Origin: a virus
Taxonomy: Duplodnaviria; Heunggongvirae; Uroviricota; Caudoviricetes
DNA: 11,180 nucleotides
Strand: one strand, 5' to 3'
Virus record (IMG/VR): IMGVR_UViG_2859783438_000004
The notes under the pieces are model-generated. The model had not been told where the DNA came from. It searched no databases and was given only the letters and a program-made list of their open reading frames with translations. Positions within the stretch are counted from its first letter, which is position 1, and each line of letters opens with the position of its first letter. Shown here one piece after another: positions 5,025 through 11,180 of the stretch. A program made the position numbers and the translations under genes.

Positions 5025-6089
5025 ATGGCTAACGCCTGGCTCAGATTATGGCATGACATGCCAAATGACCCTAAGTGGCGAACAATTGCCAGGGTGTCAG
5101 GGCAGCCAATTGCAACAGTGATGGCAGTGTATATCCACCTCCTGGTGAGCGCGTCACGAAATGTCACGCGAGGTCACATTGATGTCACGACAGAAGATTT
5201 GGCAAGTGCGCTCGACGTGACAGAAGAGGTAATTGATTCAATTTTGCAGACGATGCAGGGGCGGGTACTTGATGGTGATTTAATCACTGGATGGGAAAAA
5301 CGCCAGGTGCTTAAAGAGGACAACGGCAATATTTCGCAAACCGCAAAATCTCCTGCAGAGCGCAAGAGGGCGCAGCGAGAGAGGGAAAGAAAGCGGGAAC
5401 AAAATGGCGATTGTCACGGCGCGTCACGAAATGTCACGCACATGTCACGACGAGTCACGACAGATACAGATAAAGATACAGATAAAGAAGATCAAAACAC
5501 TATGGTCCATGGCGTAAAAAACGCCACGAACCAGGCAGGGGATGTTCAGACCGTCAATCCTGGTCAGCCAGCAGGCTCGACACCGGAAGCCGATTCAGCG
5601 TATGCGCTGAAAGCCGATTCGGGCGCTGTGCAGCAGGTGATGACCGCAAGGCCGGAGCAATCACTCCAACTGCAGCAGCCTGAAGCCGATTCCGCCATTC
5701 AGCGGGAAGCCGATCGGGTAGCCCCGGAAAACACCGGGCAGCCTGTGGGACGAGTGGATTATCCGGATGTGTTCGAACAGGTCTGGCGGGAATACCCGTT
5801 GCGTGCCGGGGCAAACCCGAAGAAATCCGCATTCAGTGCCTGGAAGGCCAGATTGCGCGAGGGGGTGCCACCAGAGACCATGCTGGATGGTGTGAGGCGT
5901 TACGCGAGATACCTGGCGGCGACCGGGAAAGCGGGAACGGAATTTGTTCAGCGAGCGACGACGTTTTTTGGGCCGGACCGGAATTTTGAAAACCCCTGGT
6001 TGCTCCCGGTAAGCGGCACGAACAACCAGCGTTGTGTGAATCATATTTCTGAACCGGATACCGAAATTCCGCCGGGATTCAGGGGGTGA
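5025..6089 (+). CDS. Replication initiation protein (lambda O-like role) with the replication origin iterons embedded in the coding sequence
   Basis: ATG at 5025 after GAGG (ORF track begins at GTG 5019); two clusters of GTCACG repeats inside the gene; immediately upstream of, and overlapping the RBS of, the DnaC-like loader. Confidence 0.7.
   Translation: MANAWLRLWHDMPNDPKWRTIARVSGQPIATVMAVYIHLLVSASRNVTRGHIDVTTEDLASALDVTEEVIDSILQTMQGRVLDGDLITGWEKRQVLKEDNGNISQTAKSPAERKRAQRERERKREQNGDCHGASRNVTHMSRRVTTDTDKDTDKEDQNTMVHGVKNATNQAGDVQTVNPGQPAGSTPEADSAYALKADSGAVQQVMTARPEQSLQLQQPEADSAIQREADRVAPENTGQPVGRVDYPDVFEQVWREYPLRAGANPKKSAFSAWKARLREGVPPETMLDGVRRYARYLAATGKAGTEFVQRATTFFGPDRNFENPWLLPVSGTNNQRCVNHISEPDTEIPPGFRG
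5151..5193. repeat. Iteron cluster 1: four GTCACR cores at 10-11 bp spacing
   Basis: GTCACG at 5153, 5163 and 5184, GTCACA at 5173; an inverted copy GTGAC at 5216-5220; the 19-mer GCGTCACGAAATGTCACGC (5151-5169) recurs exactly at 5421-5439. Confidence 0.6.
5411..5486. repeat. Iteron cluster 2 (five GTCACG cores at 10-11 bp spacing) followed by a 12-bp tandem duplication GATACAGATAAA x2; putative ori core
   Basis: GTCACG at 5413, 5423, 5433, 5444, 5454; GATACAGATAAA at 5463-5474 and 5475-5486, A-rich. Confidence 0.6.
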
Positions 6090-6095
6090 TGTGGC

Positions 6096-6842
6096 ATGAA
6101 AAACATTGCGGCAGCCGGGGTTCTTGAACGTATTCACAGACTTGCACCACAGGGGGCGGTTCCACCGTACCGGACGGTGGAGGAGTGGCGGGAATGGCAA
6201 CTTGCTGAAGGACGAAAACGCAGCGAGGAGATTAACCGCCAGAATCGCCAGTTGCGGGTGGAAAAAATCCTGAATCGTTCGGGCATCCAGCCTCTGCACA
6301 GCAAATGCTCGTTTGCGAATTATCAGGTGCAGAACGACGGGCAAAAATACGCGCTGAGCCAGGCCAAATCCATAGCTGACGAACTGATGACCGGGTGCAC
6401 GAATTTTGTGTTCAGCGGTAAAACCGGCACCGGGAAAAATCACCTTGCAGCGGCGATGGGTAACCGGCTGATGGCGAAGGGGCGCAGCGTGATTATCGTC
6501 ACCGAGTCTGATGTCATGAGCGTGTTGCATGACAGCTACGACAACGGCAAATCCGGTGAAAAATTTTTACAGGAGCTTTGCGGGGTTGATTTGCTGGTCC
6601 TGGATGAAATAGGCATTCAGCGGGAGACGAAAAACGAGCAGGTGGTATTGCACCAGATAATTGATCGCCGGACAGCATCACTGTGCAGTGTCGGGATGTT
6701 AACAAACCTGAATCATGCCGCAATGAGCACGCTTCTTGGTGAGAGGATTATGGACCGCATGACCATGAACGGTTGTCGGTGGGTGACGTTTAACTGGGAT
6801 AGCTGGCGTTCAAATGTCAGCTTTCCGGGAGTTGTGAAGTAA
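6096..6842 (+). CDS. DnaC-like replicative helicase loader (AAA+ ATPase, IstB/DnaC family)
   Basis: Walker A GKTGTGKNHLAAA and Walker B LLVLDEIG; GGGGGTGA RBS overlapping the stop of the initiator gene. Confidence 0.85.
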   Translation: MKNIAAAGVLERIHRLAPQGAVPPYRTVEEWREWQLAEGRKRSEEINRQNRQLRVEKILNRSGIQPLHSKCSFANYQVQNDGQKYALSQAKSIADELMTGCTNFVFSGKTGTGKNHLAAAMGNRLMAKGRSVIIVTESDVMSVLHDSYDNGKSGEKFLQELCGVDLLVLDEIGIQRETKNEQVVLHQIIDRRTASLCSVGMLTNLNHAAMSTLLGERIMDRMTMNGCRWVTFNWDSWRSNVSFPGVVK

Positions 6843-6863
6843 TTTTTGTTGGAGGATGTTTTA

Positions 6864-7589
6864 ATGGAAACTGTATTTGACGCACTGAAAGCACTGAAAA
6901 GAGCCTCTTCACATGTGGTGGCGTCCCGCCTTGGAATCAGCCGTGAAGATGCGGTCAACGAACTGTGGAAACTGAAGCGCCGTGGTGAAGCGGATAACAA
7001 GGGTTCGATGTGGTGGCTGATTCAGGCTGGTGAAAGTGAACCAGTGTCACCGGTACCGAAAGTGACAGCGCAAATGCTGACTGAGGCGATTGAACAACAT
7101 GGCCCACAAACGGCGGATGAGCTGGCACTGATGTTCGGGATTACCTCCCGCCGGGCGAATTCATCGCTGGCCATGGCAATCAGCAAAGGGCGTCTGATTC
7201 GCGTGAATCAGGGCGGTAAATTTCGGTACTGCATACCGGGCGCTGATTTACCGGCAGAGCCGAAAGCCGCATCCATAGCGGAAACGGATGGTAAAGTCTT
7301 TCCTCAGCCAGCAGGTGTTGCGTTACCGGTACAGGAAGCTGCAACACAGGAAGAAATTAAAACAGAAACTGTGGCGGACATTGTGCAGTCGTTGCCATCG
7401 TTCACCGAAACGCAAGCGGATGACCTGGTTTTACCATCGCTGCATATGGCAAACCGCGAACTGCGTCGGGCGAAAAGTCATGTCCAGAAGTGGGAGCGTG
7501 TCTGCGCCGCGTTGCGGGAGCTGAACAAGCACCGGGATATTGTTCGACAGATTGTCGATTCCTCCGGTCGTATTGTGTCGGAAAAGTGA
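6864..7589 (+). CDS. Hypothetical protein (241 aa) with two winged-helix-like modules and a charged C-terminal helical region
   Basis: GGAGG then 8 nt then ATG at 6864 (ORF track begins at a TTG at 6846); internal repeats [23 protein letters not shown] and [25 protein letters not shown]. Confidence 0.6.
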
Positions 7590-7604
7590 TTGCCGGGGGC
7601 GCTT

Positions 7605-8027
7605 ATGGCAAAAGTATTTACACAGGAAGAGCGGGAAAAAATTAAGGGGCAGGTTGTTGAACTCGTACGCCAGAGTGGGCGCGAGACGTTACGACAACTG
7701 GAAGCTAAAACCGGGGCGACAAGATATTTAATAAGCGTTCTCGCCAGAGAGCTGGTTGCCAGTGGGGATGTATACAACTCTGGCTACGGGTTATTCCCGT
7801 CTGAACAGGCTCGTAAGGACTGGCAAAACGCCCGCAAAAAACTCTCGAGGGCAAAGCTGAAGAAACCATCTGTGGTTGATCCGGACCTTATCTGGTCATT
7901 ACCAGACGGAGAAATACGCCGCTACGACAGACATCAGAACATAATCTGTCGCGAGTGCCGGAAGAGTGAAGTTATGCAGCGTGTACCGGCTTTCTATCAG
8001 GGTGATTTTCAGGAGGCGGTACTGTGA
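7605..8027 (+). CDS. Hypothetical protein (140 aa) with one winged-helix-like module and a CxxC element
   Basis: ATG at 7605 (ORF track begins at a TTG at 7590 directly after the upstream stop); segment RETLRQLEAKTGATRYLISVLARELVASGDVYN resembles the modules in the preceding gene. Confidence 0.55.
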   Translation: MAKVFTQEEREKIKGQVVELVRQSGRETLRQLEAKTGATRYLISVLARELVASGDVYNSGYGLFPSEQARKDWQNARKKLSRAKLKKPSVVDPDLIWSLPDGEIRRYDRHQNIICRECRKSEVMQRVPAFYQGDFQEAVL

Positions 8028-8084
8028 GTGAAATTAGCTATCAGGCTTCAATTACCGCTGGCATTCGCATCAAAGGAGAGGAGC

Positions 8085-8441
8085 ATGGAAATAAAACCAG
8101 AAGATGAGTTAAGCAATATTGTTTTATTTCCGGTAAAAGAGGATAACCCTCGTAATCAGGTTAATTTTCTTTATGAGCCATCGGAAAGACCATATTGCCA
8201 TCACGCTTCTGTCCGGGTTGACGAAAAAGAGCGTCAGGTCCGCTGTAAAATTTGCGGTGCAGTTGTGGAGCCATTTGACTGGATGCTCTCTGTGGCGAAA
8301 AGAGAAACCAGACTGGCAGATGATGTAAGGCTCTTGCGCCAGGAGGAGCGGGAAAGGCGAAAAAATATAGAAAAGCTAATCCAGATTGAGCGTAATGCGA
8401 AAGCGCGGATACGCAGGGTGACAAAATATAGCCCCGAATAA
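8085..8441 (+). CDS. Hypothetical zinc-ribbon protein (118 aa) with a basic helical C-terminus
   Basis: AGGAGAGGAG directly upstream of ATG 8085 (ORF track begins at GTG 8028 with no RBS); cysteine/histidine pattern PYCHH..x14..CKIC. Confidence 0.55.
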   Translation: MEIKPEDELSNIVLFPVKEDNPRNQVNFLYEPSERPYCHHASVRVDEKERQVRCKICGAVVEPFDWMLSVAKRETRLADDVRLLRQEERERRKNIEKLIQIERNAKARIRRVTKYSPE

Positions 8442-8655
8442 TCAAGGTTATTTCTGGAAGTCAAGTCGTGAGTGATGAGGACTAACAAATACGGTGAACT
8501 CGATAAAGAGATTCAGGACGAACTGGAGGCCAGGAATGATTGACAAATCACCAAGTGAGTTCAGCTACAAAGATTTATTGTCATAACGGGTTATGAGATC
8601 GACTTGGTGCGTGATATTCTTCGGGCCAGTTTGCTATGCGCCACCATGAGATGTT

Positions 8656-10488
8656 ATGGCCCGCATGTTTGATACATTAGGATTTTACATTATGAATGTG
8701 CAACATTTTGATTTTTTTACAGATAATGAGTTTTCTAATCTGGAAAGATATCAAACTTGTAAAGCCATGGCCAAAGGTTATGCGGGCAATTACAAAACCG
8801 GGCAGTCAAGGTTGATGCATGCCCGCTCATACTGCTTCAGCATCGTAGCTGCATATTGGGATACCCTTGCAAAAAAGCAAAAAAGCAGCATTAAAATGAG
8901 GGCAGTACCGCACACTGTTTACATAGAAGACATTCCATGTGATGCACGCGAGCTCGCTGAACGAACAGGTGAGCTTATTGCTCAATTTCCGGCGGAGGAC
9001 GCTGGATATCTGATTGGGTCAATTTATACGGTAATGCTGCCATCCGCTTACCGTTCGGAATTGGGGGCTTACTATACCCCCCCACCTTTGGTAGCGCGTC
9101 TCTTGGACCTGGCTGAAAAGTCTGGTGTTGATTTTTCTCATGCATCGGTTATTGATCCTGCGTGTGGTGGCGGTGCATTTTTGGCACCAGTAGCCATTCG
9201 AATGTTAAAAAAAGACAAGGGGTCTTCCCCTGAATGGATGTTGAGGAGAATCAGTCGTCGTTTAAAGGGGATAGAAATCGATCCATTTGCGGCTTGGATG
9301 AGTTTGGTATTGCTCGAATCTGTACTAATGCCACTATGTGTAAAGGTAAAACGTAGATTGCCTGAAGATACAATTATTGTTGCTGATGCGCTTCAGCAAG
9401 ATAAATTTTCTGGTTATGATCTTGTGGTAGGGAATCCGCCTTACGGACGTGTCACTCTCGATATTAAAACGAGAGAAAAATATTCTCGTTCGTTATTTGG
9501 TCATGCAAATCTATATGGATTGTTCACCGACTTAGCTGTTCGCATGGTTAAAGAGAAAACAGGAGTTATTGCATTTCTTACGCCAACTTCTTTTCTTGGT
9601 GGGCAGTATTTCACCGCGCTGCGAACCCTTTTGACCGAAAAAACTACTCCGTATGCCCTTGATTTCGTCACTGACAGGGATGGGGTCTTTGACGATGTTC
9701 TCCAGGAAACAATGTTGACAGCATTCAAGGCGGGAGAACATAAAGTTCGGGCCCAGGTATCCTCACTTGTCCCTAAGGGGTTGAACAAAGCAAAAATTGA
9801 GAAAATAGGTAATGTTGATATAGAAAAAGGTGGAGCAACGTGGCTTTTGCCACGCGTTAAAGATGATGCCTGTTTTCTTAATGTATTAAAACAGATGTCT
9901 ACGCGTTTAGCTGATCTGGGATACTCAGTCTCTACAGGTCAGTTAGTCTGGAATCGATTTAAGTCGCAGTTGCGTACGACGAAAGGAAAAAATAGCTACC
10001 CATTAGTCTGGGCGGAATCAATAACTTCAGCTGGTTTTCGTTTTAGTGCAGACAGAAAAAATCATGTTCCCTATATCGATATAACCCCACAACAGGGTTT
10101 CCTTGTGACAAAATCTGAATGTGTGCTTGTTCAGCGGACAACATCGAAGGAACAGGACAGAAGGATTTTAGCGGCAATTTTACCTCAGGGATTTATAGAT
10201 GAAACTGGTGGCGTAGTAGTTGAAAACCATATTAATATTGTATATTCAAACGGATTGTTCTCTGCGGTTCGCCCTGATGTTATTGATATGCTACTTAATT
10301 CGCATGTTGTCGATCGGGCGTTCAGGTGTATAAGCGGAAGTGTTGCTGTTTCGGCCTATGAATTGAATTCAATCCCGTTGCCTTCTCTGGAGCAGGTGAT
10401 GGAGATTCAATCGTTAATTGATGCTGGCGTCCACAGACGGATTATTGAGAGAACTATCGCTGGTTTCTATGGAGTGATGATTGCATGA
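8656..10488 (+). CDS. Gamma-class N6-adenine DNA methyltransferase (Eco57I/TaqI-like motif order), 610 aa
   Basis: Motif X GAYYTPPPLVARLL, motif I VIDPACGGGAFL, motif IV VVGNPPYG in that order; about 300 aa C-terminal region as a candidate target-recognition domain. Start uncertain (ATG 8656 has no clear RBS; in-frame ATG at 8692 follows AGGA). Confidence 0.85.
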   Translation: MARMFDTLGFYIMNVQHFDFFTDNEFSNLERYQTCKAMAKGYAGNYKTGQSRLMHARSYCFSIVAAYWDTLAKKQKSSIKMRAVPHTVYIEDIPCDARELAERTGELIAQFPAEDAGYLIGSIYTVMLPSAYRSELGAYYTPPPLVARLLDLAEKSGVDFSHASVIDPACGGGAFLAPVAIRMLKKDKGSSPEWMLRRISRRLKGIEIDPFAAWMSLVLLESVLMPLCVKVKRRLPEDTIIVADALQQDKFSGYDLVVGNPPYGRVTLDIKTREKYSRSLFGHANLYGLFTDLAVRMVKEKTGVIAFLTPTSFLGGQYFTALRTLLTEKTTPYALDFVTDRDGVFDDVLQETMLTAFKAGEHKVRAQVSSLVPKGLNKAKIEKIGNVDIEKGGATWLLPRVKDDACFLNVLKQMSTRLADLGYSVSTGQLVWNRFKSQLRTTKGKNSYPLVWAESITSAGFRFSADRKNHVPYIDITPQQGFLVTKSECVLVQRTTSKEQDRRILAAILPQGFIDETGGVVVENHINIVYSNGLFSAVRPDVIDMLLNSHVVDRAFRCISGSVAVSAYELNSIPLPSLEQVMEIQSLIDAGVHRRIIERTIAGFYGVMIA

Positions 10489-11180
10489 ATCTGCCTGTTG
10501 TTCCCCCATTGAATGTTATCCGGGAAAGATTACAATTAATTTTCCCTGAAGGGACTGAGAATCGTGGATATTTAATTCGGGAAATAGCTGCAAAAACAAT
10601 TTTTGTCATGTTTTATGCTGGTGCGGTTGAGGGGCTGGGGCGATGGATAAGGCCCAGCCAGGTTGTAAGTATGGGAGATTCGCAGGCTGCTCTTACTGAT
10701 GATGCGTCCAGAGAAAGCTGGGTAAAGATGACTTTCTCTAAACAAAAGATAAGGCCTGCTGATGCATGGTATGCGGAAAATACGCGTGAGCCAATACGTG
10801 ATGAAACTATAAAAAATGGCCTAATACCTTGCAATGCAATTGTTGAGCGTAAAGGTATACCCACCACATCCTCTCGTCCTCGTTACAGTTTGAATCGCTC
10901 TTTTGCAGCACTCTTTGATGCCGGGCTTGAAGGAGATTCGCTGCTGAGTGCAATAAGTTCCTGGCAAGAAAATCATTTGAACAAAGCCGCTCTTGCTAGG
11001 TTGCGTTTATTGAAATCAGGGGCAGTGATTGCTGCTGATGCCGTAGTCGTCACTTTCCCAAATGGAGAGAAGAGAACTTTAGCTCCGGGCCCGTCAAGTA
11101 CAATAGCTAAGGCCGTCATCGAAGTTTTTGCTCCTAATTTTCTTAAGAATCCAACTGTGCTCTGTGAAGTGGCACACTGA
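10485..11180 (+). CDS. Hypothetical protein (231 aa) translationally coupled to the methyltransferase; candidate PD-(D/E)xK nuclease / restriction endonuclease
   Basis: ATG overlaps the MTase stop (ATGA at 10485-10488); possible nuclease core IRDETIK..15 aa..AIVERKG (D..ExK); stop TGA is the last three bases of the window. Confidence 0.6.
   Translation: MNLPVVPPLNVIRERLQLIFPEGTENRGYLIREIAAKTIFVMFYAGAVEGLGRWIRPSQVVSMGDSQAALTDDASRESWVKMTFSKQKIRPADAWYAENTREPIRDETIKNGLIPCNAIVERKGIPTTSSRPRYSLNRSFAALFDAGLEGDSLLSAISSWQENHLNKAALARLRLLKSGAVIAADAVVVTFPNGEKRTLAPGPSSTIAKAVIEVFAPNFLKNPTVLCEVAH

Follow-up and report, generated by a model that had tools for sequence, protein, structure and literature searches.

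A BsuBI/PstI-family restriction-modification cassette in a lambdoid prophage, with an endonuclease gene probably interrupted by IS911

We conclude, at a probability of about 0.9, that the two genes at the end of the prophage DNA analysed here (one stretch of 11,180 nucleotides, hereafter the window) form a restriction-modification (R-M) cassette of the BsuBI/PstI family, with an endonuclease of the SdaI fold, and that the endonuclease gene (R) has been broken by IS911, leaving the methyltransferase gene (M) as a solitary one. The initial annotation of this DNA had proposed either a type II R-M system carried by the prophage or an undescribed methyltransferase-associated defence system. The first proposal was correct as far as the identity of the genes is concerned, as judged by PADLOC, Pfam and the likeness to SdaI, but it does not hold for a working pair, R being interrupted by IS911. 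The second must be abandoned, as both genes match type II R-M families. The pair is an ordinary, already catalogued R-M system carried as a prophage moron and not an undescribed defence system; the NCBI name of the intact partner protein is already 'BsuBI/PstI family type II restriction endonuclease'.

The methyltransferase gene and its coupled partner

The M gene encodes a gamma-class N6-adenine DNA methyltransferase (MTase) and occupies positions 8656-10488 on the plus strand, with 610 aa as the longest open reading frame. Its true start is probably the ATG at 8692, which is preceded by AGGA 11 nt upstream and would give a protein of 598 aa; annotations of this length are present in the same protein cluster as the 610-aa form. 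The catalytic core (9070-9444, plus strand) was read from the sequence, from its translation and from an alignment with the MTase of phage ArgO145. All the gamma-class motifs first noticed in this frame were located on the plus strand, namely YYTP (aa 139-142, nt 9070-9081), the SAM-binding motif I DPACGGGAF (aa 167-175, nt 9154-9180) and motif IV NPPY (aa 260-263, nt 9433-9444), and they follow the gamma order, with motif I ahead of motif IV and the target-recognition region at the C terminus. The protein matched the Pfam families Eco57I (E=1.7e-13) and N6_Mtase (E=2.1e-9), and the PADLOC model MTase_II PDLC03338 aligned with it from end to end (residues 7-608 on positions 2-602 of 604, E=1.8e-300). 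The TaqI MTase was its top PDB match, and its C-terminal 350 aa could be aligned with the PstI-like MTase of phage ArgO145. Among the NCBIfam models, only those of the 'exception' type matched M, with scores far under their cut-offs. A promoter scan found no sigma-70 consensus promoter upstream of M, a result that is uninformative as to expression.

The partner gene overlaps M. The M stop and the R start share an ATGA at 10485-10488 on the plus strand, the mark of translational coupling that had drawn attention to the pair, and the downstream open reading frame runs from 10485 to 11180. The initial annotation described this frame as a 231-aa partner that it could assign to no recognised family. 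A profile and structure check against Pfam, PADLOC, PDB and Foldseek placed it in the BsuBI/PstI family with the SdaI fold; as a native gene it is incomplete, since only codons 1-226 of a 360-codon type II restriction endonuclease gene are present (10485-11164, plus strand) and the last 16 nt are the terminus of IS911. The fragment comprises the whole HTH recognition domain at the N terminus, the linker and, of the catalytic domain, the initial ~40 residues. Accordingly, the N-terminal HTH/winged-helix recognition family PF17728 is present with 108 bits (cut-off 27; E=3.9e-31), residues 10-172 being aligned with positions 2-136 of 140, and the catalytic family PF06616 is incomplete, with residues 188-226 covering only profile positions 2-40 of 154; the intact R allele covers positions 2-152 of the same 154 (E=9.3e-45). 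The window protein also matched the PADLOC model REase_II PDLC03589 over positions 3-226 of 364 (E=2.3e-77), and no NCBIfam model matched R. As these family matches are very strong for both open reading frames, neither can be a chance one.

The only significant PDB match of the intact 360-aa protein was SdaI (2IXS), by sequence (E=1.8e-16, residues 96-349) as well as by a Foldseek comparison of its AlphaFold model (E=1.5e-9). The global TM-score of the latter comparison was low (0.29-0.33), partly because the confidence of the model is moderate, with a mean pLDDT of 66.9 and values mostly of 84-93 in the N-terminal domain. A published listing of PD-(D/E)XK nucleases includes a group 'SdaI, BsuBI' under PF06616 (PMC3424549). 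Intact R combines N-terminal winged-helix recognition with a C-terminal PD-(D/E)XK nuclease domain and, we suggest, would cut unmethylated incoming DNA. The intact system would be of type IIP, M being expected to N6-methylate an adenine within a short recognition site. With M translated first through the ATGA overlap, the host would be protected before the 360-aa endonuclease is made.

The one observation that might speak for an undescribed MTase-associated defence system, whether BREX-like, MADS-like or other, in place of a classical R-M pair is that M weakly and partially matches the models for PglX and MAD2. These matches, of 21-37 bits where the curated cut-offs are 400-900, cover the shared MTase core only, whereas M is a type II MTase over its whole length and its partner matches both a type II endonuclease model and SdaI. 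Moreover, neither the window nor the intact loci contain accessory genes of such a system. We therefore give this explanation practically no credence, and retain that of a classical BsuBI/PstI-family cassette.

The organization of the pair is conserved among its homologues. At E<=1e-5, R has more than 3,700 homologues, and the best 120 of them are 344-382 aa long with both domains present. We surveyed the neighbourhoods of 80 related loci from species-representative genomes. A homologue of M, 590-603 aa long and with 40-67% identity, occurs in 78 of these; in 75 of the 80 it lies directly upstream of R on the same strand, adjacent to it or overlapping, as the cognate adenine MTase gene does in the window. 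With simple ORF calling, the exact 4-nt overlap was recovered in 54 of the 78 M-bearing loci. These loci belong to Gamma-, Beta- and Alphaproteobacteria and to other groups, and the genomes with the pair include Paraburkholderia, Erwinia, Pseudomonas, Sphingomonas and Caulobacter; this subclade with a 360-aa R and a 600-aa M is widespread. The survey of gene neighbourhoods, which had been suggested as a check, shows that the M-then-R order is kept and that the pair is no core phage gene: it behaves as a mobile type II R-M cassette.

The catalytic residues of the endonuclease were located in an alignment of 36 full-length homologues together with SdaI. Residues P257, D258 and E279 of intact R are invariant in the 36 homologues and align with P232, D233 and E248 of SdaI. 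The acidic residues D258 and E279 are both absent from the window fragment, as they lie past residue 226. The active site of SdaI is reportedly formed by D233, E248 and K251. In the alignment, A282 stands in this R subclade at the position of SdaI K251, and an invariant D284 at that of SdaI K253. Because A282 replaces K251, the active site appears to depart from the SdaI pattern even in intact R.

A possible D..ExK signature had been pointed out within the fragment (IRDETIK, aa 104-110, and AIVERKG, aa 118-124). This stretch sits in the N-terminal HTH/recognition domain. It was rejected as a catalytic motif: among the 36 homologues E121 is conserved in 75% and K123 in 33%, and SdaI has D and L at these positions.

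Genomic context and the intact state

The window carries a lambdoid immunity and replication region, with genes for Rha/Ash, DUF1391, PaaA2/ParE, a CI-like repressor, a Cro-like protein and YdaT, together with those for a replisome organiser, a DnaC-like ATPase, DUF1627 and DUF977. The impression that the pair is richer in AT than the adjacent replication genes was borne out by calculation, with a GC content of 0.436 for 8656-11164 and of 0.532 for the replication block at 5019-8027. We propose that a lambdoid, Rac/Qin-like prophage took up the cassette as an AT-rich moron, immediately past its replication genes.

The intact state of the cassette is common. The exact 610-aa M and the intact 360-aa R are each found on at least 1000 contigs, under the name Shigella sonnei in the sources, with 5,032,769 bp as the longest contig for either; the 231-aa form is found on one contig only. 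Six complete chromosomes of 4.8-5.03 Mb, the proteins of which are likewise named Shigella sonnei in the sources, carry the identical M allele and the same 4-nt overlap, followed by an intact 360-aa R, and the window is 99.94-99.98% identical to them over 1990-11164. At residue 339 of M the window allele has T and the E. coli copies have A. The window allele is probably functional, since it co-occurs with intact R in the complete chromosomes, and a cell would not survive an intact R if M did not work.

Only a remnant of the prophage is left in these S. sonnei-type chromosomes. A copy of IS1 stands about 150 nt past R, and beyond it come genes for mannitol dehydrogenase, YdfZ, a GntR-family regulator, a short-chain dehydrogenase and an M3 peptidase, which we take to be the ydfI–dcp region of the chromosome. 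In the two E. coli strains the prophage that carries the cassette is a full one, with ParDE, DUF968, RusA and Q after the cassette. By megablast the cassette matched none of the sequenced phages, and tblastn found among them only the EcoGIII-like genes of Stx phages, at 27-28% identity.

As an observation apart, the window holds two oddly deleted IS1 copies at places where the complete genomes carry full-length IS1. When the deletion junction of the mini-IS1 was searched for in E. coli genomes, the matches were in two pieces, to full-length IS1, and are uninformative.

The IS911 junction in the endonuclease gene

The last 16 nt of the window (11165-11180, plus strand; TGAAGTGGCACACTGA) are the beginning of the terminal inverted repeat of IS911, a member of the IS3 family. 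This IS911-type terminus starts with TG, and its 16 nt are identical (16/16) to the end of the annotated IS911 in locus L002 (19874-19889). Codons 227-231 (C-E-V-A-H) of the 231-aa frame, and its TGA stop, belong to this IS911 end. A base by base comparison with intact R gave identity up to 11164 and complete divergence after it. Megablast located the cassette in the complete genomes of two E. coli strains (99.3-99.9% identity), with the match ending at 11164; in both, an intact R of 1083 nt (360 aa) follows M. Beyond 11164, intact R reads GTTGTCTGAATCC in place of the IS911 sequence TGAAGTGGCACACTGA. One public contig, in the Logan assembly of SRR5192198 (3292 bp), codes for exactly this 231-aa protein; it may come from the same isolate as the window. 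It reaches 12 nt further, so that 28 of 28 nt match the IS911 terminus. Both sequences end inside the IS, the window after 16 nt and the Logan contig after 28. Past the far end of the element, expected to read GTTGACCACTTCA, a 3-bp duplicate (CTG expected) and then GTTGTCTGAATCC should follow. The exact R/IS911 junction gave 0 matches in genome_contigs, a collection of GTDB species representatives from which this isolate is apparently absent.

Such a junction could be an artefact of assembly or a chimera, in which case R would really be of 360 aa and the system intact and active here. Nearly all records of R are indeed intact, the 360-aa protein being present on at least 1000 contigs and in 6/6 complete chromosomes, and the two deleted IS1 copies suggest that the assembly of the window is imperfect around IS elements. 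However, the junction is exact, with R matched at 100% as far as 11164 and IS911 at 16/16 nt after it; it recurs with 28/28 nt of IS911 in the independently built Logan contig, and De Bruijn assemblers need spanning reads to yield junctions of this kind. We consider an artefact very unlikely and favour a true insertion of IS911 into R.

On the reading of a true insertion, IS911 entered after codon 226 and would have taken away the whole catalytic beta-sheet, including P257-D258 and E279. In the AlphaFold model the break lies within residues 223-230, which form the first core strand; D258 and E279 are on later strands. Judged from its sequence, R in the window is a truncated member of the BsuBI/PstI family, a pseudogene whose product is predicted to be non-functional. 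Restriction would be lost because IS911 removed the nuclease core, and with it any post-segregational killing, while M would stay as a solitary enzyme. The lesion looks recent. Besides the IS insertion, a single synonymous base separates the R fragment from the copy in FDAARGOS_943; because nothing else distinguishes it from intact alleles, the event would be very recent, and it is possibly confined to one isolate.

Alternatively, the truncated protein might have a function of its own, for instance as a site-specific DNA-binding modulator of methylation or of transcription. The fragment does retain the complete HTH recognition domain (residues 10-172) and its coupling to M, and no other part of the model is predicted as well as this domain, whose pLDDT is 84-93 over much of its length. 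On the other hand, the allele is known from a single 3.3-kb contig, the lesion is very recent and bears no sign of selection, the cognate sites, being methylated, would probably make poor targets, and a fragment ending within a core beta-strand is likely to be unstable. A function of this sort seems to us extremely unlikely, and we keep to the view that R is a pseudogene beside a solitary M.

One may also ask whether the loss of R is recurrent in Shigella sonnei. The R protein cluster contains many 'partial' S. sonnei fragments broken at contig ends. Those from the N terminus run to aa 197, 201, 254, 324, 337, 347 and 355, and those from the C terminus begin at aa 179, 216 and 296, each of these on 2-7 contigs. 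A variant with a frameshift after K324 belongs to the same cluster. If these fragments were independent IS insertions or mutations, restriction would have been discarded repeatedly and the MTase kept; a possible reason would then be an easier uptake of resistance plasmids, with methylation retained as an epigenetic mark. We consider it rather unlikely that the loss is recurrent and not a one-off event. The importance of the present case is mainly for annotation: the correct label is a BsuBI/PstI-family type II R-M cassette with R as an IS911-disrupted pseudogene, and the locus would be one more prophage R-M moron decaying to a solitary methyltransferase.

Comparison with known restriction-modification systems

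The cassette shares with the BsuBI/PstI family the same two-domain endonuclease (PF17728 + PF06616) and a gamma-class N6-adenine MTase as partner. In the PstI and BsuBI systems R is of ~320 aa and M of ~500 aa; the proteins described here are longer, with 360 aa for intact R and ~598-610 aa for M, and in the window the catalytic domain of R is missing. With SdaI (PDB 2IXS), which recognises CCTGCAGG, the catalytic PD and E positions are kept (D258/D233 and E279/E248), whereas identity is only ~16-25%.

PstI and BsuBI cleave CTGCAG. Given the membership of this family and the alignable C-terminal region of M, our guess is that the recognition sequence may be CTGCAG or another palindrome with a TGCA core. 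CTGCAG occurs about as often as expected, 4 times in the window for 2.7 expected, and 5 and 2 times in two prophages for 5.0 expected in each, but these counts say nothing on specificity because a resident prophage is self-protected. Nothing usable was found in the literature on S. sonnei methylomes or on this R-M subclade.

A well-documented precedent in a prophage is EcoGIII, the PstI-like R-M system of Stx2 phages. Its enzymes act on CTGCAG, M by methylation and R by cleavage; the host genome is methylated, host transcription is changed, and other lambdoid phages are restricted (PMC6602927, PMC3893438). Its hosts are the Stx2-converting lambdoid phages of E. coli O104:H4, O145 and O111. EcoGIII too is a lambdoid-prophage moron in which, in phage ArgO145, M comes before R with a 4-nt overlap, and there too R shows decay, being annotated as frameshifted in that phage. 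In contrast, EcoGIII adjoins cI whereas the present pair follows the replication genes, its M is of 489 aa, and its proteins are only 26-28% identical to the present M and R. Because identity is that low, the present pair is, by sequence comparison, placed in a different subclade of the same family.

Solitary MTases arise in R-M systems by decay of the R gene. The present locus resembles them in having an intact M beside an IS-inactivated R, and here the inactivation would be very recent.

Loss of the toxic genes

The gene of the ParE toxin (3152-3442, minus strand) lies in the window downstream of an intact PaaA2 antitoxin gene (3442-3636). A base-level comparison with L086, a locus from one of the complete S. 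sonnei-type chromosomes, revealed that the window copy of parE lacks one base pair (GG to G at 3386/3387), and this deletion alters the reading frame after codon 19. ParE was called intact, with 96 aa, in all six of these chromosomes. Because this frameshift adds to the disruption of R, the BsuBI/PstI-family restriction endonuclease, the two "addictive" toxic genes of the window are both inactivated.

The R protein cluster (P0002 and P0125-P0134) contains numerous S. sonnei entries annotated as partial, in which the breaks fall within the gene, at contig ends. The N-terminal fragments stop at residue 197, 201, 254, 324, 337, 347 or 355, the C-terminal ones start at residue 179, 216 or 296, and the cluster also holds one variant that is frameshifted after K324. 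These fragments may be a sign of recurrent R disruption. The sizes of the contigs that bear them are consistent with breaks between the flanking IS1 copies.

IS1 elements and the end of the prophage

The window carries two internally deleted IS1 copies of 430 bp (108-537 and 1782-2211), each with a separate 9-bp target duplication (AACCGGAAA and AAACGGTTG). Both lack the same internal segment, about 338 bp long, and this loss joins in frame the N-terminus of InsA to the C-terminus of InsB, leaving in each copy an ORF of 119 aa. Full-length IS1 elements occupy precisely both sites in two of the complete S. sonnei-type chromosomes (L088 and L089). The shortened pair reflects either an assembly collapse in the source of the window or a mini-IS1 conversion.

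In the complete S. sonnei-type chromosomes (L085-L090, at about 12912-13880 in locus coordinates), the prophage stops abruptly about 150 nt past R. It is followed there by an IS1 and then by genes for mannitol dehydrogenase, YdfZ, a GntR-family regulator, a short-chain dehydrogenase and an M3 peptidase, which we take to be the ydfI–dcp region of the chromosome. The prophages of E. coli FDAARGOS_943 and VL7S7 continue beyond the same cassette with ParDE, DUF968, RusA, Q and the late genes. The S. sonnei copy is a prophage remnant truncated by IS1.

R compared with SdaI and EcoGIII

The subclade of the intact 360-aa R carries the motif PD…E-V-V-A-T-D-G, in which E-V-V-A-T-D-G spans residues 279-285 (11820-11840 of L001, a locus with intact R). 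In the alignment, the position of K251, the catalytic lysine of SdaI, is occupied by A282 in 78% of the homologues, and where SdaI has K253 the subclade has an invariant D284 instead. Judging from this alignment, the predicted active site must either receive its lysine from elsewhere or be a variant one.

In the Stx2a phage ArgO145, the EcoGIII-like endonuclease gene (L004 4824-5778) is annotated with a frameshift and in-frame stops, and the adjoining methyltransferase is intact. ArgO145 is a further case of R decay beside a kept M: like the window pair, its EcoGIII-like pair combines a decayed endonuclease with a retained methyltransferase.
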